From the NCBI RefSeq assembly GCF_050320075.1, contig NZ_CP190018.1: a stretch of DNA of 64,000 bases; one strand, 5' to 3'. Below, piece after piece: positions 2,898-41,785 of the stretch (position 1 is the stretch's first letter; every line of letters begins with the position of its first letter). This stretch comes from Escherichia coli. GTDB lineage: Bacteria; Pseudomonadota; Gammaproteobacteria; Enterobacterales; Enterobacteriaceae. The notes below the pieces were generated by a model. That model was not told the origin of the DNA, did no database searches, and was given only the letters and a program-made list of their open reading frames with translations. Position numbers and translations under genes: made by a program.

Positions 2898-2926
2898 GAA
2901 AAGGGGGCCTGAGTGGCCCCTTTTTT
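2898..2926 (+). terminator. rpsO intrinsic terminator
   Basis: aaaagggggcctgagtggcccctttttt: near-perfect GC hairpin plus T-run immediately after rpsO stop. Confidence 0.8.
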
Positions 2927-3128
2927 CAAGCTGACGGCAGCAATTCACTGGAAACTAATGTATTGTTGCTATGAATGATCTTCCGTTGCAGAGGTTCGCG
3001 CGGCTAATGAGAGGCTTTACCCACATTGGGCTGGGTTAGGGTTGTCATTAGTCGCGAGGATGCGCAGAAGATCGGGTATTAACACCAGTGCCGTAAGGTA
3101 CTGTCTAAGAAAGAGAAAGGATATTACA
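2927..3128 (+). promoter_or_regulatory. pnp promoter/leader region (RNase III-processed autoregulatory leader by established knowledge)
   Basis: About 200 nt untranslated region upstream of pnp with a TTG start; position-based call, motif not verified. Confidence 0.45.
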
Positions 3129-10929: not shown

Positions 10930-11808
10930 TTACGCTTGCAGCTCCAGCCCGGCCAGCCGCCGCCAGTAGCCGTTACAATCGCTGTTTGCCGTCAACGGCA
11001 GTGGTGCAGCGCCATTTTCATTGGCGCGGAAGGCGTCGAGCATTGCGAAAGTGTCAGTACCCTGCGGTGACAGGCGGACCACATCGACCAGCCCCTGCAT
11101 GGATGTCAGCTCGTTACCGAGGTTGTAAACGTAGCCGCTCATGGTCTGAATGCCATTGAGTACAAACACTTGTTGGTTTTCCTGCGATAGCACGTTGCGC
11201 CCGTTCGGATACTTAATGCAGCAGGTTTCACACTCATCTTTCGGGCGGTCTTCCGAACGCGCGGTAAAGCAGCGGGCGGAGTAGGCCAGCGGCAGATGAC
11301 CGTAGCTCAGGACTTCCACTTCAAACTGGTTGCGAATGCCCAGCTCATCGCACTGATTAAGCAGATTCACCAACCAGTCGCGGGAAAGCTCCACCGGCAT
11401 ACACCAGCGCATCATGCCCTGTTTGAGCAATATTTTCAGTGTCACCGCGTTGTAGCAGTTCAGCGCGTGCCCGGCGACGAACGGCAGTTTGCGTTCAGCG
11501 CACATATTCACCACGCCGAGATCGCTGGCTTCAATCAGAAACTCACCGTTCTCAACATAGCGTTTCAGTTCGCCCAGTTCAGAGGATGCCTGCACCAGCG
11601 CCAGCGTGGAGAGCACAATCTGCTTACCACTTCCGGCGAGTGATTTTGCCATCTCCAGCCAGTCGCCAACTTTGGTTGCCCGACGCTTGCTGCATACCGC
11701 TTCACCAAGATAAATCACGTCGGCGCTGCTGGCGGCGGCCTGCTGATAAAATTCTTCCAGCGTCTCTTTTGGCCAGTACCACAGCACTGGCCCTAAGGAA
11801 TATTTCAT
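10930..11808 (-). CDS. ubiV: U32-family peptidase-like protein, O2-independent ubiquinone biosynthesis
   Basis: ORF 10930..11826; start placed at internal MKYSLGPVLWYWPKE (292 aa) from recalled length. Confidence 0.8.
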   Translation of the reverse strand: MKYSLGPVLWYWPKETLEEFYQQAAASSADVIYLGEAVCSKRRATKVGDWLEMAKSLAGSGKQIVLSTLALVQASSELGELKRYVENGEFLIEASDLGVVNMCAERKLPFVAGHALNCYNAVTLKILLKQGMMRWCMPVELSRDWLVNLLNQCDELGIRNQFEVEVLSYGHLPLAYSARCFTARSEDRPKDECETCCIKYPNGRNVLSQENQQVFVLNGIQTMSGYVYNLGNELTSMQGLVDVVRLSPQGTDTFAMLDAFRANENGAAPLPLTANSDCNGYWRRLAGLELQA

Positions 11809-21882: not shown

Positions 21883-22650
21883 TTAACGACGACACATCTC
21901 ATCAATCATGCATGTGAAATAGTTATGCAGCCATAAAAATGAAGCCGGGATAGCGGTAGAGACTTTAGCCGTGAGAAAACGATCTGTCGCATCCTGCTTT
22001 CCTTCGCCAGTCACCAGTAACAAAACTTCGCGGGCATTGAGAATATCCTTCAGGCCTAAGGTGATCCCACGAGTCACGGGACGGCCCGCGGTTTTTAACA
22101 TCTCATGTTGCTGTGTTCTGGCATCAAGTTGACTGATATGGCAGGCCGGTTGCAGGTTTTCTCCCGGTTCGTTCAGCCCAAGATGACCGTTTTTCCCCAA
22201 TCCGAGAACGCATAAATCCAGGCCGCCTTTGCGCGCAATCAGGTTCGTTACCCGTTCGCACTCTGTCTCATTTATCTCTTCGGAGCGAAAGCTGATGAGC
22301 TGGTCTTCACGTAGCCCCAGCGGCTGCACGATATGCTGTTGTAGGAAAGTTTCGCAGGTGCCAGGCATAGTTAATGGCAGATCCACCCATTCGTCGAGCT
22401 TCACGAAGGTGAGATGGCTGACATCAACCTGCTGCTGGTGGATTTTTTCTACCAGATAATGATACGTCAGTAATGGCGTGGCTCCGGTCGCCAGGCAAAT
22501 CACGGCATCCGGTTTGCTACGGATCACGGCCAATAAATATTCGCTGGCACGTTCACTTAACGCCGTATAGTTTTCAACTTGTTGAAGGGTTTGCACAGGA
22601 TGAAATTCCTTTAGTAAAGAGGCACCACCAGACGCAGTGCCTCGTTCCAT
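21883..22650 (-). CDS. agaI: Galactosamine-6-phosphate isomerase/deaminase-like (NagB family)
   Basis: 255-aa ORF, NagB/RpiA-like; last gene of the aga cluster. Confidence 0.82.
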   Translation of the reverse strand: MERGTASGGASLLKEFHPVQTLQQVENYTALSERASEYLLAVIRSKPDAVICLATGATPLLTYHYLVEKIHQQQVDVSHLTFVKLDEWVDLPLTMPGTCETFLQQHIVQPLGLREDQLISFRSEEINETECERVTNLIARKGGLDLCVLGLGKNGHLGLNEPGENLQPACHISQLDARTQQHEMLKTAGRPVTRGITLGLKDILNAREVLLLVTGEGKQDATDRFLTAKVSTAIPASFLWLHNYFTCMIDEMCRR

Positions 22651-24273: not shown

Positions 24274-24750
24274 TTAGTCAGGGATTTGTTCTTTTTGATC
24301 GCCAGGGACGTCCTGAATGAAAACATTCACGCCACGTTGTTTAATAAAACGTAAGTCCGTGAGATCCTGGTCATCGACATAAACTTTACTGCTGATTTGC
24401 TTTTTCCCTTCCGAGAAATGCATATTGCCGACGTTGACATCTTTCAGGTCAATACCACCTTCTACCAATTTACGTACCGTTTGTGGCGTACGGCAAATCA
24501 GGAAGATCTTCTGATGCGGTGCAGCTTTGCCGATGACGTTAATGGTTTTTTCGATAGTAAAGAAACGAATGCCAAAGCCGTAGGTTTCCGCGGTAATACC
24601 CATTAATTTCTGTTGAATATCATCGTTAGCGACAACATCATCCACGACTACCAGCAGATTTGCACCGATGGTGGATGTCCAGGTCACGCCAACCTGACCG
24701 TGAACCAGACGGTTATCAATACGGGTTAAGAGAATATTTGGACTGCTCAT
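24274..24750 (-). CDS. agaB: PTS galactosamine-specific EIIB component
   Basis: 158-aa ORF with RIDNRLVHGQV (mannose-family IIB signature). Confidence 0.85.
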   Translation of the reverse strand: MSSPNILLTRIDNRLVHGQVGVTWTSTIGANLLVVVDDVVANDDIQQKLMGITAETYGFGIRFFTIEKTINVIGKAAPHQKIFLICRTPQTVRKLVEGGIDLKDVNVGNMHFSEGKKQISSKVYVDDQDLTDLRFIKQRGVNVFIQDVPGDQKEQIPD

Positions 24751-24916: not shown

Positions 24917-25789
<873 letters not shown>

Positions 25790-26944
25790 TTATGCCTGCC
25801 ACGGATGAATGATTACGCCTTGCACCACGCGGTTAACGGTGCCGCTGGCTGATGGGGTATCCGGCGTATTGCCCATGTGCAGCGACTGCATCAGTGCAAA
25901 CGTCTGGGCGTACATCAGGAAGCAAAATGCCTGCTCAACGTCGATAAAGTGACGGGACGGCGGCAGGATGATATGTGGACCGGCGGTAATAACGTCGTTG
26001 CTTTCCGCGGCGATAGCGATTACGCGCATCGCCTGGTTATCGCGGCGAAGTTCAGCCAGCAGATCAAGATCATACTGACGGGTGTAAGGGTGGCTGGAGA
26101 CAAATACCACCACCAGCGTTTCGTTATCGACCAGCGATTTCGGGCCATGACGGAATCCGGTCGGGGAATCATAAAAGGCCGCCAGTTTACCCGCCGTCAG
26201 TTCCAGTACTTTCAGCGCCGACTCGCGTGCTGCGCCCTGTAAGCCACCGCTGCCGAGATAAACGATCCGTTTCCACGGTGCGTAACCAAACACACCTTCG
26301 CTGAAATCGCCCAGTGAGGTCAGGATCGCCTGGCAACGATCCGCCACGTCGCGGAAGCTCTGGCTGTTGATCGTCTCAGGTGCGAAAACCGCGAGGCAGC
26401 TGACCATCATGGTGGTAATGCTGCTGGTCATCGCAAAGCCGCGGTCGTGCGTTTCTGCGGGCATCAGCAGGGCAAACGCGTTGTCGCTGTTGATCGCGTT
26501 TTGGTAAAGAGCGCCCGCTTCGTTGCAGGTGATCGGCAGGTGATAGCACTCGGGTACAAATTGATTTGCCAGTTCCACGGCGGCGACGCTTTCCGGGCTG
26601 TTGCCGGATCGACCGAAGGAGATCAACAGCAGTGGATGAGCTGGATTCAGGTAGTCCATCGGATTGGTGACCAGATCGGTGGTCGGTACGGCGCTGAAGT
26701 TTTTACCTGTATGGCTGGCGAGCCACGGCGCGATGATGTCACCGATAAATGCCGAGGTTCCGGCTCCGGTCAGGATTACCCGCAGATTCTCTTTGCGCAG
26801 TAACGGTTCAAGGAAGTTATTGAGCGCGGAACGTAGCGCGTCGATGTTGGTGAGTGAACGGATCCATGCGCGAGGCTGATGGCGGATCTCTTCTTCAGTC
26901 CATGTACCGGTTGCGGCAGCAGCAGGGGTGTAATTTTCTGGCAT
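25790..26944 (-). CDS. agaS: SIS-domain sugar isomerase/deaminase (galactosamine-6-P deaminase)
   Basis: 384-aa ORF with two SIS domains. Confidence 0.88.
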   Translation of the reverse strand: MPENYTPAAAATGTWTEEEIRHQPRAWIRSLTNIDALRSALNNFLEPLLRKENLRVILTGAGTSAFIGDIIAPWLASHTGKNFSAVPTTDLVTNPMDYLNPAHPLLLISFGRSGNSPESVAAVELANQFVPECYHLPITCNEAGALYQNAINSDNAFALLMPAETHDRGFAMTSSITTMMVSCLAVFAPETINSQSFRDVADRCQAILTSLGDFSEGVFGYAPWKRIVYLGSGGLQGAARESALKVLELTAGKLAAFYDSPTGFRHGPKSLVDNETLVVVFVSSHPYTRQYDLDLLAELRRDNQAMRVIAIAAESNDVITAGPHIILPPSRHFIDVEQAFCFLMYAQTFALMQSLHMGNTPDTPSASGTVNRVVQGVIIHPWQA

Positions 26945-27134
26945 AACTCAATCCTTAGTCTGATGAACTTGACGTCGGGCGTTGTCGCTTTCGCTTACCT
27001 TTCGTTTCATTTCACTTGGTGATGTCTTTCGTTGATTAAAATCTATAGAAAAGAAACTGAAAGTTCAATGGAGAAAAAAGAAATAAAACGAAATTTGTGA
27101 TCGTTGAAAGAAAAGACAAGGGAAGATTAAAGAA
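26945..27134. promoter_or_regulatory. agaS promoter region with repeated ctttcgttt/gaaacgaaa-type motifs (candidate AgaR operators)
   Basis: Several copies of TTTCGTTT-like words in both orientations upstream of agaS. Confidence 0.45.
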
Positions 27135-27139
27135 TTGCA

Positions 27140-27230
27140 TGATGACGTTGCTATGTGCACCGATTGCCGGATGCGGCGTACCGTAGGTCGCATAAGACGC
27201 GTCAGCGTCGCATCCGACACCGCTGTACAG
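27140..27230. repeat. REP-like palindromic elements between agaA and agaS
   Basis: gccggatgcggcgtaccgtaggtcgcataagacgcgtcagcgtcgcatccgacacc. Confidence 0.45.
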
Positions 27231-27294
27231 ATCAAAAAGAAAGAAAAAGAAAGGCCTTACGGGGGAAGTGAAGGCCCAATAAAGGAGCAAACCA

Positions 27295-28428
27295 TCAAAA
27301 CGAAGCTAATTGACCCTGAATCCAGATTTGTTGCACATGCAGCCCGCTATCCAGCGCAACGACGCTGGCGCGTTTGCCCGGTTTAAGCGATCCCAGAACA
27401 TCATCAACACCCAGCATACGCGCCGGATGCAGCGACGCCATATGGATGGCTTCCGCAGGCGTTACGTCCGTCAACTCGACCATATTGCGCACTGCCGCAT
27501 CAACAGACAGCGTACTGCCCGCCAGTCCACCGGACGCGGTACGGACAACGCCACCGTGCATCTGCACTTCTTCGCCACATAACGTATAGCGACCATCCGG
27601 CATCCCGGCTGCCTGCATCGCGTCGGTGATGAGCACGATTCTCTCTTTCGCACAGCAACAACACAGCGACATCGCCGCCGGATGCACATGATGACCATCG
27701 GCTATCAGTTCCAGCCAGGCGCGCTTGTCCGTTAATCCCGCGCCAACCATTCCCGGTTCGCGGTGATGTAAACCTGTCATCCCGTTATAGCAATGCACCA
27801 GGCCGTCGGCACCAGCGTCAAACGCGGCACGGGTTTGTTGCCAGGTCGCCGCGCTATGCCCCAGCATCACCCGTACGTTTTGCTGTTTAAGATGGCGGAT
27901 GGCCTGCAATGCCCCTTCTTTTTCCGGTGCCAGCGCTACCACGCGCAAGGTGTGCTGAGAAACGGCAATCAATTGATCCAGCTCGGCAATTTCCAGCTCG
28001 CGAAACAGCTCCGGCGGATGCGCGCCTTTATTCTGCGGCGTGAAGTATGGTCCTTCGAGATAACTCCCCAGCACTTGCGCACCAGGTCCGTCGCGTTGGC
28101 AACGTTGAGCAATACGTTTCAGCGCCGCATGAATGGTATTAAGCGGCGCGGTTACGGTGGTCGGTAACCAACTGCCGACACCTTCGCGTGCTTTGTGCAT
28201 TGCCAGCTTGTCGAGCACATCCGGCGCGTCATCCATTACATCAACGCCCGCACCACCGTGTACATGGGTGTCGATGTAAGCGGGGCAGAGCAGTTCCGCA
28301 TCGCGTTCAGTCACGCCCACTGGAATCGGTTCGATTGCTGCGATTACACCGTCAGCAATACGCAACTGATGGTCATCGAGCCATCCCTCTTCAGTCAGCA
28401 GCCTTCTGGCGCGCAGAACGTGTGTCAT
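27295..28428 (-). CDS. agaA: N-acetylgalactosamine-6-phosphate deacetylase, full length
   Basis: ORF 27295..28449; start at MTHVLRARRLLTEEG gives 377 aa; NagA-like metal-binding motifs. Confidence 0.85.
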   Translation of the reverse strand: MTHVLRARRLLTEEGWLDDHQLRIADGVIAAIEPIPVGVTERDAELLCPAYIDTHVHGGAGVDVMDDAPDVLDKLAMHKAREGVGSWLPTTVTAPLNTIHAALKRIAQRCQRDGPGAQVLGSYLEGPYFTPQNKGAHPPELFRELEIAELDQLIAVSQHTLRVVALAPEKEGALQAIRHLKQQNVRVMLGHSAATWQQTRAAFDAGADGLVHCYNGMTGLHHREPGMVGAGLTDKRAWLELIADGHHVHPAAMSLCCCCAKERIVLITDAMQAAGMPDGRYTLCGEEVQMHGGVVRTASGGLAGSTLSVDAAVRNMVELTDVTPAEAIHMASLHPARMLGVDDVLGSLKPGKRASVVALDSGLHVQQIWIQGQLASF

Positions 28429-28859
28429 ATTCCTTCCTCGACCGGACATTCTTCATGGCAGCGGCCTAACTCGTCCACCAAACTGGTCAGCCCACGGTGT
28501 CCACACTCCAGCGCCTGCACACGGAACTCTTCACCGCTTAACCCTTCGCGCTCCAGCACCATCTCCAGTAGCAGTTGCAAATTGGTGCCGGTGATCACTT
28601 CACAGCCCGGTTTTTGCATCGCCAGCGTTGAAGCTACGCGAAACGGCGTGCCGCCCAGCAAATCCGTCAGAAAAACAATGCCGTCTTCACAATCGAGTTG
28701 GGCGATGGCCTCTTCAAGCTGCGATGTAAGCTGCGCGGTGCTTGAGGTTTCGGGAAAATCGATGGCAATAAACTGCGATTGCTCGCCGAGGATTTGCTTC
28801 ATTGCTTTTTCCATGCCGCTGGCAAATCCGCCATGCCCTGTCAAAATAATACTTAACAT
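28425..28859 (-). CDS. agaF: PTS N-acetylgalactosamine-specific EIIA component
   Basis: 144-aa ORF MLSIILTGHGGFASG (mannose-family IIA). Confidence 0.82.
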   Translation of the reverse strand: MLSIILTGHGGFASGMEKAMKQILGEQSQFIAIDFPETSSTAQLTSQLEEAIAQLDCEDGIVFLTDLLGGTPFRVASTLAMQKPGCEVITGTNLQLLLEMVLEREGLSGEEFRVQALECGHRGLTSLVDELGRCHEECPVEEGI

Positions 28860-28876
28860 CTAATACCTCATTGTAT

Positions 28877-29761
28877 TTAAAGGAAATGACAGAATTTACC
28901 GACGATACCGAGAACCACGGTAACTGCAATCAGGCGCAGCGGACTCCAGCCGCGGCGTACCAGCCAGAACATGGTCAGGGTGTAGACCAGCGGTAAGAAG
29001 GCAGGCATCAGTTTGTCGATAACATCAGCCTGTAACTTAACCACTGCATCGCCAGCGGTGATTTCCAGCGTGGTGCTTAAACGAACATAGGTTGCTACCA
29101 GCGCGCCGATTACCGTCATCCCAACGATTGACGCAGCATGGCCGACTTTTTTGGTATTCGCTTTAATGAGTGGAATCGCCGCCACGCCCATGCGATAAGC
29201 ATAATGCGCCAGACCAAAACGCAGCCCCAGGTGTACCACGTTGAACAGCACAATAAAGACGACAGCGCCAAGAATAGAGCCTTGTAGCGCGAGGCTTGCA
29301 CCAATCCCGCCACAAATCGGCAGTAGCGTCAGCCAGAACATTGCATCGCCAATCCCGCCGAGCGGCGCACCGACGGCAATTTTGGTGCTCTGAATACTGT
29401 TAACGTCCTGCTTAGAACGCTCCATCGCAAGGATAATGCCGATAACAAACGTCACCAGAAACGGATGGGTATTGAAGAAACCCATATGCCCCTTCATGGC
29501 GCGCGCCAGGTCGCGTTTATTAGTGTGGATCTTTTTCAGAGCAGGCAGCAGACCGTACAACCAGCCGGAAGCCTGCATACGTTCGTAGTTAAAAGACGCT
29601 TGTAACAGCATGGAACGCCAGGCGACGCGGTTGATATCTTTTTTTGTCAGCTCTGCGCCAATGCTCTGATCTTCATACACGTTTTCATTGATGCCAGTCA
29701 GCAGTGTTTCTTCGTTTTCACTGACGTTCGGCAGGGTGGTTTGATTAGATGCCATCTTCAA
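28877..29761 (-). CDS. agaE: PTS N-acetylgalactosamine-specific EIID component
   Basis: 294-aa ORF, paralogous to agaD (shared SFNYERMQA motif). Confidence 0.82.
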   Translation of the reverse strand: MKMASNQTTLPNVSENEETLLTGINENVYEDQSIGAELTKKDINRVAWRSMLLQASFNYERMQASGWLYGLLPALKKIHTNKRDLARAMKGHMGFFNTHPFLVTFVIGIILAMERSKQDVNSIQSTKIAVGAPLGGIGDAMFWLTLLPICGGIGASLALQGSILGAVVFIVLFNVVHLGLRFGLAHYAYRMGVAAIPLIKANTKKVGHAASIVGMTVIGALVATYVRLSTTLEITAGDAVVKLQADVIDKLMPAFLPLVYTLTMFWLVRRGWSPLRLIAVTVVLGIVGKFCHFL

Positions 29762-30524
29762 ATTCCTCTTTCTGTGCCGCAGGTTGAGTCGGTTCAGGAG
29801 ATTTACGCAGCAGGTCGATCAGCGCCATCGCCAGCGCGGCGGCAGCAATAGCCAGCACCGGTAACTTGAGCCAGGCTGCGGCAACAAAGCCCAGGATGAA
29901 GTAGGGGATGTAGACGTTTTTCATCATGATTTTCAGCAGCACGGCAAAACCGATTGCTGGCATGATGCCGCCCGCGACGCCGAGGCCGTCGATTAATCGT
30001 TGCGGCAGGACATCAATGATGGTTTTTGCATGTTCCGCGCCGAAGTAGATAGGCAGGAAAGCGCAGAGAAAATAGAAAGTGCCGAGTGCCAGCAGTGCCA
30101 GATAGTTCACGCGTTCAATGCCGCGAGTATCGGCGTTCTCCGCCATCCGGTCGCAGCGGGACATTACGCCAGACATCACCGAGAACAGGAAGGTAATCCC
30201 CATCTGTACTGCGACAGCGAAAGGTACGGCGACACCGACCGCGACATCGGGTTTCACGCCAGTAGTAATGGCAAACGCCGTGCCGACGATAGTACCGATA
30301 ATCACGTTAGGCGGTTGTGCGCCTGCCAGCGGGGCCAGCCCCATCCACACCAGTTCCAGCGTACCGCCGGTTAAAATACCGGTATGCAGATCGCCAAGTA
30401 CCAGCCCGACTAACGGGCCGAGGACCACCGGGCGGTGCATATGGGTTAAGCCGTTAAACATATCCAGGCCAGCGATAAAGGCGATAATGCCCAACGCGAA
30501 TGCCTGCAACAGACTGATTTCCAT
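29745..30524 (-). CDS. agaW: PTS N-acetylgalactosamine-specific EIIC component, full length
   Basis: 259-aa membrane ORF, paralogous to agaC. Confidence 0.82.
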   Translation of the reverse strand: MEISLLQAFALGIIAFIAGLDMFNGLTHMHRPVVLGPLVGLVLGDLHTGILTGGTLELVWMGLAPLAGAQPPNVIIGTIVGTAFAITTGVKPDVAVGVAVPFAVAVQMGITFLFSVMSGVMSRCDRMAENADTRGIERVNYLALLALGTFYFLCAFLPIYFGAEHAKTIIDVLPQRLIDGLGVAGGIMPAIGFAVLLKIMMKNVYIPYFILGFVAAAWLKLPVLAIAAAALAMALIDLLRKSPEPTQPAAQKEEFEDGI

Positions 30525-30534
30525 GATGAATCCC

Positions 30535-31008
30535 TCAAAGTAATTTAAAGAGGTCCACAGCAGGCTCTGTCGGGACGCCCTGAACGAAGCATTCCACCCC
30601 AGCGGCTTTCAGGTCGTTAAATGCTGCGATATCGCCCGCATCCACAGAAACCGTTTTGGCGATTTGTTGCTTGCCATTGGCGTAGTGCATATTGCCAACG
30701 TTAATGCGATTCACCGGAACGCCACCTTTCACCAGCGTCAGGAAATCGGCAGGTGTTTTACAAACCAGCAGGATTTTCTGTCGATCGGCGGCGCGGTGGA
30801 TGTTGTCGATAACTTTTTGCAGCGTCCAGAAACGTACGGCGATCCCTTCTGCCAGTACCATTTCCATCAGGTTTTGTTGTACCGGATCTTCGGCAACCTC
30901 ATCGTTGGCTACCAGCACCAGATTTGCCCCCGCAAATCCGACCCACTGAACGCCGACCTGACCGTGAATCAAACGCTCATCAATCCGGCTTAAAACAATA
31001 TTTGGCAT
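30535..31008 (-). CDS. agaV: PTS N-acetylgalactosamine-specific EIIB component
   Basis: Start placed at MPNIVLSRIDERLIHGQVGVQW (157 aa); paralogous to agaB. Confidence 0.85.
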   Translation of the reverse strand: MPNIVLSRIDERLIHGQVGVQWVGFAGANLVLVANDEVAEDPVQQNLMEMVLAEGIAVRFWTLQKVIDNIHRAADRQKILLVCKTPADFLTLVKGGVPVNRINVGNMHYANGKQQIAKTVSVDAGDIAAFNDLKAAGVECFVQGVPTEPAVDLFKLL

Positions 31009-31030: not shown

Positions 31031-32311
31031 TTATTGGCCTTCACAGGCTGTGTGGTACTGCGCCAGGATGTCCTGAATATGGTTGATAATGAGTTCCCGT
31101 GGTGTTGGCTGCAGCTCGCCGGAGCGAACTTTCACGTATTGCAGCGGCAAATACTGGCTGATGAGCGGTAGCGGAATTGGTGAATCCGCCAGATTACGAA
31201 CCAGATGAGCGAAAGCGTCATCAATCTGGCTGTCCGGCCAGTAATAGCGCACGCGATCTGAGTAGCTGTAACCACGCGCCAGGCGACGTGCGTTGCCGTC
31301 ACCGTGGTAGTGGCTTTGCCAGTATTCCGGGCGGTCGAGCATCACGTTTTCCAGCACCTGACGCAGACCAGAACAGGCTTTTGCTGGTACCAGTTCTTCT
31401 TCAATCGCCGCCAGAGAGAACAGAGCTTCACGCAGGGCGAAGGTCAGCGCCGGGCCAACTTTCAGGATGGCAAAGTGGTCAATCACCAGCTGGCGCAACG
31501 ATTGTGGCGTTTGATAATCGGTAGAGTGCGCTTCGAAAATCAGCGTTTCGTAGTTTTCGACCATCTGGCTTAAGGCGGTCGCTTTGACGGGCTGATAATC
31601 AATAACGTTGGTGTGATCGAATTCGACGCCGGGTTGAACCACCAGAGCAATGATGCGTGGCCAGATGGCACTCAGACCCTGCTTTTCAAAGGCGTGACGA
31701 TGGGCTTCCAGCGTGGCGCGGGCGGCATCCGGCGTGGTGACCGCCAGCTCGCTTAAGGTTTCATGCGCGCCGCCAGGTACCGGCACTTCGGTACCAATGA
31801 CATACTCCAGATCGGCTTCGCCAAAGTGTTCGCGACAGGTTTCTTCCGCCACTTTCGCCAGACGGGCGGCGCGTTCAGCCACGATGTCATCAGTTAAGGG
31901 AATTGGATCGTCCTGACAGGACATGCTGCAATCAAGGTGGATTTTTTTGAATCCTGCCGCAACGTAGCTTTTAATCAAATCATCGGCATTGGCCATTGCC
32001 TGAGCGGCTGGCAGGTTTTGCCAGCGGTTTGGACCCAGATGGTCACCACCCAGAATCAACGCATCCTGCGGGAAATTCAACGAGTCGGCGAGCTGACAAA
32101 CAAAGCCGCGAAAATCGGCGGGCGTCATTCCGGTATAGCCGCCGAACTGGTCTACCTGATTGGAGGTTGCTTCAATCAGTAACGGCGTTTGGTTTGCACT
32201 GGCGTAGCGGATTGCAGCCTCCAGCACCAGCGGATGTGCGGAACAAACGGCATAAATTCCATTTGTTTTGCCCGCTTTGTGCTGTCTCACCATTTCTGTC
32301 AGATGTTTCAC
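31031..32311 (-). CDS. kbaZ: Tagatose-bisphosphate aldolase non-catalytic subunit
   Basis: 426-aa ORF; first gene of the operon divergent from agaR. Confidence 0.88.
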
Positions 32312-32559
32312 TTTCCTCTCCAGTTCAGATTACTGCGATATTAATCTTTCGTTTTGTTTCAGTTGATACTGCGCCATGGTGAGATAAAAATAAAACGAAA
32401 GATAATGGTTTTCTGATCTGATTCACAAAAGAAACATAATGAAAGCCACTGAAACGAGAGTAGCTTGCGCCAATGGGTAAGGTGGGCTTGCATTTGCTTA
32501 ATAGAAAGGCGTTAATAGGCAAAACGAAATGAAACGAAAGTTTTACGAAAGGACTTACT
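32312..32559. promoter_or_regulatory. kbaZ/agaR divergent promoter region with multiple aaacgaaag / ctttcgttt repeats (candidate AgaR operators)
   Basis: Repeated (g)aaacgaaag and inverse words at about 32347, 32393, 32440 and 32528. Confidence 0.5.
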
Positions 32560-33369
32560 ATGAGTAATACCGACGCTTCAGGCGAGAAGCGAGTGACAGG
32601 CACCAGTGAGCGACGAGAGCAGATCATTCAACGCCTGCGCCAGCAAGGAAGTGTGCAGGTTAACGATCTGTCGGCATTGTATGGCGTATCTACTGTGACG
32701 ATCCGCAACGATCTGGCGTTTCTGGAAAAGCAGGGGATCGCTGTGCGTGCCTATGGCGGCGCGTTGATCTGCGATAGCACGACGCCGTCAGTCGAGCCAT
32801 CAGTGGAAGATAAAAGCGCGCTGAACACCGCAATGAAACGCAGCGTTGCGAAAGCTGCCGTTGAGTTGATTCAGCCAGGTCATCGGGTGATCCTCGATTC
32901 CGGGACCACCACTTTTGAGATTGCTCGTCTGATGCGCAAGCACACTGACGTAATTGCGATGACCAACGGTATGAACGTGGCTAATGCGTTGCTGGAAGCG
33001 GAAGGCGTTGAGCTGCTGATGACCGGCGGGCATTTGCGCCGTCAGTCGCAATCTTTTTACGGCGATCAGGCTGAACAATCGCTGCAAAATTACCACTTCG
33101 ATATGCTGTTTCTTGGCGTAGATGCGATCGATCTGGAGCGCGGCGTCAGCACGCATAATGAAGATGAAGCCCGTTTAAACCGTCGGATGTGCGAAGTTGC
33201 GGAACGGATCATCGTGGTCACCGATTCCAGTAAGTTTAACCGTTCCAGTTTACATAAGATCATTGATACTCAACGTATCGACATGATCATTGTTGATGAA
33301 GGCATTCCTGCGGATAGTCTGGAAGGCCTGCGAAAGGCTGGGGTTGAAGTGATTCTGGTCGGGGAGTGA
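32560..33369 (+). CDS. agaR: DeoR-family transcriptional repressor of the aga regulon
   Basis: 269-aa ORF with N-terminal HTH and DeoR C-terminal sugar-binding domain. Confidence 0.9.

Positions 33370-41408: not shown

Positions 41409-41785
<377 letters not shown>

Follow-up and report, generated by a model that had tools for sequence, protein, structure and literature searches.

Control of the promoters PR, PZ and PS by AgaR is an established entry in the standard regulatory databases, and the 2004 study by Ray and Larson (Mol Microbiol 51:813) is said to have demonstrated that this control is exerted through multiple operators. That study is the one cited in the relevant passages of PMC3668189, PMC4694137 and PMC10101011. 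According to such passages, AgaR binds the agaR, kbaZ and agaS promoters (PMC3668189, citing Ray & Larson 2004), and it is autoregulatory, with direct binding to sites before agaZ and agaS (PMC4694137). GalNAc acts as an inducer of Pz and Ps fusions, and deletion of agaR makes agaA and agaS expression constitutive (PMC3668189); the physiological ligand of AgaR is called unclear in PMC4694137. An AgaR binding sequence, CTTTCGTTTCATTTTCGTTT, is listed as coming from PkbaZ in Table S3 of PMC8667592, and it represses synthetic promoters. In addition, genomic SELEX for CRP recovered kbaZ as one of its known targets (PMC3105977). The system considered here, the operators through which AgaR acts on the aga regulon of E. 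coli, is already known, and for that reason it is of low interest, and has little weight, as a discovery.

How does the present locus compare? The window, i.e., the whole 64,000-nucleotide stretch of Escherichia coli DNA analysed, contains the aga cluster intact, with kbaZ-agaVWEFA and agaS-kbaY-agaBCDI on the minus strand and agaR divergent from them. Several E. coli chromosomes match a 501-bp stretch around the feature at 100% identity, and 5,321 records match it at 90% or more. Gene identities were taken from the annotation of a 100% identical E. coli record together with the list of open reading frames, and they bear out both the gene names and the 248-bp divergent spacer of the initial annotation. 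The minus-strand order begins with agaI (21883-22650), which is followed by agaD and agaC, then agaB (24274-24750), kbaY (24917-25777), agaS (25790-26944), agaA (27295-28428; its PGAP name in the identical record is nagA), agaF, agaE and agaW, which lie between agaA and agaV, agaV itself (30535-31008) and kbaZ (31031-32311). On the plus strand is agaR (32560-33369), and the spacer between it and kbaZ, 248 bp, occupies 32312-32559. In K-12 agaW and agaA are pseudogene remnants of a deletion; in the window agaW, agaE, agaF and agaA are full length (27295-30524), and the complete GalNAc/GalN cluster is present in its strain. The agaR product, whose gene adjoins the sites described below, has HTH_DeoR (1.9e-21) and DeoRC (3.3e-55) domains and belongs to the DeoR family. 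The only solved relative that a PDB search by sequence returned for it is 7l6l, a deoxyribose operon repressor chain, which aligned with the sensor domain.

Attention had been drawn to direct and inverted TTTCGTTT-like copies in the 248-bp spacer, and to similar words upstream of agaS. The strings quoted are present at 32346, 32392 and 32526 in the spacer, and at 26988 and 27080 upstream of agaS, each occurring once, and the exact CTTTCGTTT has four copies in the 64 kb, all inside the two regions. A repeat finder detects a 16-nt inverted pair (32344-32359 and 32388-32403, 94% complementary) and a 14-nt direct pair (32388-32401 and 32527-32540) in the spacer, and upstream of agaS a 14-nt inverted pair (27000-27013 and 27080-27093). 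Are such words just chance or compositional products of AT-rich intergenic DNA, e.g., T-tracts or UP-element-like sequence, with no specific protein partner? Both regions are AT-rich, and over the whole window the enrichment of the bare 8-mer is weak (8 versus 3.3 in shuffles) and the excess of the bare 9-mer is mild (29 versus 20.3). With the whole-window 8-mer count so weakly enriched, the signal lies in clustering and not in total count. It is in the comparison of the two regions that composition fails as an explanation: strand-independent 9-mers common to both number 15 versus 1.6 expected, and 10-mers 11 versus 0.4 expected, and none of 1000 dinucleotide-preserving shuffles reaches the observed sharing in either case. 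The 9-mer shuffle test answers the question on which the initial annotation had staked its reading, whether the two promoter regions have an enriched motif in common: they do. Of the 14-mer seeds sought de novo the best is CTTTCGTTTTGTTT: with up to 3 mismatches allowed, 10 copies were counted that do not overlap, versus a maximum of 4 in the null (0/200 shuffles of the regions reached the observed number).

When the conserved blocks are put in a common orientation, the site motif is CTTTCrTTTyrTTTC, with TTTC-like units every 5 bp and then a weaker TT; with that period the outer two units are 10 bp apart, and so on one face of the helix. Rather than an 8-mer, the functional unit is an asymmetric triple-TTTC site of 15-20 bp. 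The individual sites are referred to here by labels coined in this analysis, O_Z1-O_Z3, O_R and O_S1-O_S4. The position weight matrix (PWM) was built from orthologs of the six strong sites, which makes the high scores of these six a matter of construction; what the matrix yields independently is the empty background and a seventh site. Its scan of the 64 kb gave the six sites at 26.7-31.2 bits and one at 19.4 bits, and apart from matches of strong sites to themselves shifted by 5 bp (13.8 and 13.3 bits) there was none above 10.3 bits elsewhere. A 24-nt string, WRMMTTTCRTTTYRTTTYNYTTKK, which we take to be the AgaR consensus of Ray and Larson 2004, has 6 matches at up to 3 mismatches versus 0.13 expected, all in the two regions, and two of them are perfect, partly a circular result as the consensus derives from the same K-12 sequences. 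A literature search for the AgaR consensus string found nothing relevant. Alignment of agaR-kbaZ spacers (73 distinct) and of the regions upstream of agaS (59) showed conservation in discrete blocks, with column identity of 0.89-0.98 in the operator cores versus 0.46 in the variable stretch 32449-32485. That sites should hold to this extent while flanking spacer drifts, and that no other intergenic region in the 64 kb exceeds 10.3 bits, is not what composition would give, and on the shuffle tests and the conservation contrast the chance reading, whose probability is vanishingly small, was rejected.

In the agaR-kbaZ spacer there are four sites. O_Z1 (32343-32366, plus strand; AATCTTTCGTTTTGTTTCAGTTGA) scores 30.5 bits with a core identity of 0.94 in the 73 spacers, is inverted with respect to the other sites of the spacer, and is downstream of, or overlaps, the kbaZ promoter. 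O_Z2 (32381-32404, minus strand; TATCTTTCGTTTTATTTTTATCTC; 28.3 bits, core identity 0.96) overlaps all but one of the four candidate -10 hexamers of that promoter. O_Z3 (32425-32448, minus strand; TGGCTTTCATTATGTTTCTTTTGT) has 26.7 bits, two mismatches to the 24-nt consensus and a core identity of 0.96. The strongest, O_R (32520-32543, minus strand; AAACTTTCGTTTCATTTCGTTTTG), has 31.2 bits, no mismatches and a core identity of 0.98. The sequence reported from PkbaZ, CTTTCGTTTCATTTTCGTTT, corresponds to the minus strand of 32522-32540, within O_R, except for one extra T in the paper (PMC8667592). At that position the genome reads CTTTCGTTTCATTTCGTTT, one T fewer, both in the window and in K-12; the extra T, by which the third TTTC unit would be displaced 1 bp, could be either a misprint or a genuine feature of the construct.

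A simple sigma-70 consensus scan found no promoter in the kbaZ or agaS direction and, within the agaR-kbaZ spacer, just two matches to the consensus, both on the plus strand; it was replaced by a search for promoters conserved across orthologs; supplements of a genome-wide transcription start site study have no agaR, kbaZ or agaS entry. For PZ the ortholog-conserved scan offers four minus-strand -10 candidates, TATTTT (32392-32387), TATCTC (32386-32381), TATCTT (32404-32399) and TATCAA (32368-32363), and under each of them at least one operator overlaps the core promoter. The first is weakly favoured; with it the geometry from downstream operator to -10 is exactly that of PS (below), with O_Z1 at +26.5 and a CRP-like site at about -39.5. 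The latter site (32412-32427, minus strand; TGTGAATCAGATCAGA) is in conserved columns upstream of the kbaZ promoter, matches TGTGA-N6-TCACA at 9 of 10 positions, and with its TGTGA half reaches into O_Z3 at the 3′ end of that operator. Its distance from the candidate kbaZ starts is about -39.5 or about -63.5 depending on the -10 chosen, and for the two best candidates its centre is 2 bp off the canonical positions.

In the other direction the predicted PR (32488-32516, plus strand) has -35 TTGCAT (32488-32493), a 17-bp spacer and -10 GTTAAT (32511-32516), with a putative start at about 32523, of which O_R would cover about -3 to +21. Between its hexamers is a conserved half-site-like word, CCTTTCT (32503-32509, minus strand). 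An alternative, TTCTGA-18-CATAAT ending at 32440 and conserved in 58 of 73 spacers, would put O_Z3 over the -10. The block 32486-32519 (GGGCTTGCAT...AGAAAGGCGTTAATAGG), presumably the agaR promoter to judge from its conservation pattern, is almost invariant in the 73 spacers and holds no full AgaR site; it is more conserved than a weak promoter would normally need.

Upstream of agaS the predicted PS (27040-27068, minus strand) has -35 TTGAAC (27063-27068), a 17-bp spacer and -10 TAGATT (27040-27045), with a putative start at about 27033, and in 54 of 59 orthologs the hexamer pair recurs at the position that aligns with it. O_S1 (26996-27019, plus strand; TACCTTTCGTTTCATTTCACTTGG; 31.1 bits, no mismatches, core identity 0.96 in 59 orthologs), centred at about +26.5 from this start, is in the predicted agaS leader. 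O_S3 (27074-27097, minus strand; CAAATTTCGTTTTATTTCTTTTTT; 29.4 bits, one mismatch, core identity 0.93), at about -52.5, is upstream of the predicted -35 and abuts a conserved TGTGATC word (27096-27102), possibly half of a CRP site; if a CRP site were based on this TGTGA, its centre would be at about -70.5, and only that half is conserved. In between, at about -21.5, a variant, O_S2 (27043-27066, minus strand; GAACTTTCAGTTTCTTTTCTATAG), has a single base added between its first and second TTTC units and overlaps the predicted -35 and spacer. It scores 9.3 bits in the window with a core identity of 0.89, and equivalents of at least 15 bits are present in about 26 orthologous loci; on these sequence features its standing as an AgaR site is uncertain. 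The distal and weaker O_S4 (27233-27256, minus strand; GGCCTTTCTTTTTCTTTCTTTTTG; 19.4 bits), at about -211.5, is just downstream of agaA. Between it and O_S3 and the other proximal agaS operators is a REP-like element, a BIME-like GC-rich inverted repeat at 27135-27225 (27165-27178 and 27206-27219; TGCCGGATGCGGCG and CGTCGCATCCGACA). The spacer that holds this element has the same length in K-12, and as 37 of the 45 differences between the two are within a stretch of about 66 bp, the element is of a different type or orientation there.

As three strong sites, O_Z1, O_S1 and O_R, are predicted to be downstream of transcription starts, and inverted copies exist, might these leader copies act as RNA structures, or as RNA motifs bound by protein, and not as DNA operators? 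The inverted partners, O_Z2 and O_S3, are upstream of the predicted starts and so would not share a transcript with the leader copies, and occurrence of the motif in both orientations relative to transcription fits recognition of DNA and not of RNA. No Rfam family matches the agaR-kbaZ spacer or the agaS upstream region. Given the lack of an Rfam match in either region, and inverted partners that are not co-transcribed, an RNA element is extremely improbable and was rejected. Elsewhere in the window Rfam matches are naRNA4 (972-1042), the ribosomal S15 leader (2555-2669), the SraG sRNA (2899-3070) and RNase P RNA (rnpB, 41409-41785), four that are as expected for that part of the E. coli chromosome.

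Not all the words counted initially have the same standing. Five correspond to conserved operators, namely ctttcgttttgtttcag to O_Z1, aaaacgaaagataatgg to O_Z2, the first part of gaaatgaaacgaaag... to O_R, cctttcgtttcatttcac to O_S1 and gaaataaaacgaaatttg to O_S3. The other four, all short, are not conserved outside Escherichia, with column identity of 0.45-0.69 versus the 0.89-0.98 of operator cores. They are ttacgaaagg (32545-32553, identity 0.69), which overlaps the agaR Shine-Dalgarno; CTTTCGCTT (26988-26996, 0.59), where K-12 reads CTTTCACTT; CTTTCGTTG (27026-27034, 0.60); and CTCTCGTTT (32452-32460, 0.45). On the minus strand the first of these positions gives a CCTTTCGT word (32545-32552) that is 11 bp, one helical turn, from the O_R core and is confined to the Escherichia lineage, the consensus of other genera there being TTATTAAAGG. 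Given that the words at 32545-32553 and 26988-26996 are each 11 bp from a core CTTTC, it can be speculated that they are lineage-specific operator extensions. Among features that had gone unlisted are O_Z3 (32425-32448), O_S2 (27043-27066), O_S4 (27233-27256) and the CRP-like site at 32412-32427. The outcome is a cleaner site list for this strain, with seven to eight sites, three of them new to the list, and four words that are lineage-specific extras.

Is the protein that recognises these sites AgaR, or could the motif be bound by another regulator, such as a DeoR paralog or a nucleoid protein, with AgaR recognising something else in the same regions? One genome per species was scanned, yielding 80 agaR loci amounting with flanks to 1.5 Mb, from Escherichia, Citrobacter, Klebsiella, Enterobacter, Salmonella arizonae and diarizonae, Kluyvera, Buttiauxella, Yersinia, Serratia and others, and in all 80 kbaZ is divergent from agaR. 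Of 542 PWM matches of at least 15 bits, 530 are in the two regulatory regions (518 assigned directly and 12 from three loci in which the agaR match began after residue 1), and only 12 weak ones are in the other ~1.46 Mb; the motif travels with agaR and the aga operons. Related regulators might share words, and in some Citrobacter loci a weak copy does precede a second DeoR-family gene. In the passages of PMC3668189 and PMC4694137 that deal with it, however, binding at exactly the agaR, kbaZ and agaS promoters is assigned to AgaR, and a 20-nt sequence of the motif gives AgaR-dependent repression of a synthetic promoter (PMC8667592). With the motif restricted, across 80 genomes, to the regulatory DNA of the aga genes, and with published effects that depend on AgaR, another regulator is very unlikely.

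The Citrobacter copy merits description in itself. In Citrobacter amalonaticus and relatives TCGCTTTCGTTTTCTTTTTAATAT (17.9 bits; 11062-11085 in locus L008, also 6392-6415 in L014 and 2646-2669 in L019) is about 40 bp upstream of the second DeoR-family-like open reading frame (L008 11127-11630), just downstream of agaR, and there are similar weak matches in L039 and L061. It could reflect cross-talk, or a paralogous regulator with similar operators. Gene content also varies: in Salmonella enterica subsp. diarizonae and arizonae (L016, L023) and Citrobacter sp. NCU1 (L017), kbaZ is followed directly by agaA and agaS, a shorter cluster variant in which no agaV-type PTS genes were detected between kbaZ and agaA/agaS.

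The words are thus, with high confidence, operators to which the product of the adjacent gene, the DeoR-family repressor AgaR, binds; the sites with their statistics, conservation and spacing, and the family of the regulator, were established here, and AgaR binding and repression come from the literature. The connection of the site list to published AgaR binding is indirect, through citing papers and the sequence in PMC8667592. The DeoR domains, confinement of the motif, the PkbaZ site, identity with K-12 and the literature together support what the initial annotation had proposed from sequence, several AgaR operators of the DeoR type through which the two aga operons and also agaR are controlled, and that call was correct.

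How might the operators work together? The distances between them are strikingly uniform. In the 64 loci with all four spacer sites, O_Z1 and O_Z2 are 55 bp apart in 62, O_Z2 and O_Z3 44 bp apart in all 64, and O_Z3 and O_R 95-96 bp apart in most (range 91-98); upstream of agaS the O_S1 to O_S3 distance is 94-95 bp in most orthologous loci. From O_S3 to O_S4 is about 102 bp in loci lacking the REP element (at least 20 orthologous loci) and 159 bp in the window. The length of the agaR-kbaZ spacer itself is 245-251 bp in all but two of 74 loci, in genera that range from Escherichia to Yersinia and Serratia, and its 37-bp middle stretch, 32449-32485, varies freely in sequence although the length is held. 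As these distances hardly vary from genus to genus, it is probable that AgaR bridges its sites cooperatively. The rigidity of the spacing is compatible with cooperative or looped binding of an oligomer, and is equally expected from promoter and CRP geometry. The near-invariant distances (55, 44, 95-96 and 94-95 bp), taken with the 245-251 bp spacer, might mean more than a set of independent operators, and a tentative proposal, for which the odds are against but not heavily so, is that one defined looped higher-order AgaR complex couples PR autorepression to PZ repression, perhaps reading the (TTTCN)3 triple-pentamer in a way structurally unseen for a DeoR-type HTH. Conservation of spacing and of spacer length from Escherichia to Yersinia and Serratia provides a reasonable start for studies of cooperativity and looping in the DeoR family.

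With AgaR operators as the preferred reading, regulation can be envisaged as follows. In the absence of N-acetylgalactosamine or galactosamine, oligomeric AgaR would occupy its operators, four in the agaR-kbaZ spacer and three to four upstream of agaS. The one over the predicted agaR start, O_R, would mediate autorepression; another would cover three of four candidate kbaZ -10 hexamers, and another would overlap the CRP site that is presumed to activate kbaZ. At both operon promoters an inverted site would be in the early transcribed region, and at agaS further sites would be over the -35 and spacer and just upstream. The predicted outcome is promoter occlusion together with anti-activation, until an inducer derived from the pathway would release AgaR and permit expression of both operons. 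The exact start sites, the roles of single sites and looping are what we infer for this scheme.

The closest comparison is with the aga regulon of K-12, where the genes, promoters and sequences are the same. The agaR-kbaZ spacer differs at 4 of 248 positions, none of them in the four operator cores or the words originally quoted, and all seven PWM sites are present in K-12, with the O_S4 equivalent at 18.2 bits. The differences are that the strain of the window carries the intact agaW-agaE-agaF-agaA segment that K-12 lost, and that two flanking bases beside O_S1, and the REP-like element that separates the distal agaS site from the proximal ones, are not the same; the operator set is unchanged. 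Further afield, the architecture is of the DeoR/GlpR type, with an asymmetric direct repeat that has TTTC at positions 2 and 12, and with four sites in one region and three to four in the other. The recognition sequence of GlpR is a different one, unrelated to CTTTCrTTTyrTTTC. The likeness of GlpR is in being a sugar-phosphate-responsive DeoR-family repressor with four operators (O1-O4) at glpFK, in combination with CRP activation (PMC4117983). For another member of the DeoR family, RhaR, the predicted sites are asymmetric imperfect direct repeats with 10-11 bp periodicity (PMC3870299), to which the 10 bp between the outer TTTC units of AgaR sites corresponds; however, the AgaR site has an extra TTT unit at the 5-bp half-step, and the sequences are unrelated.
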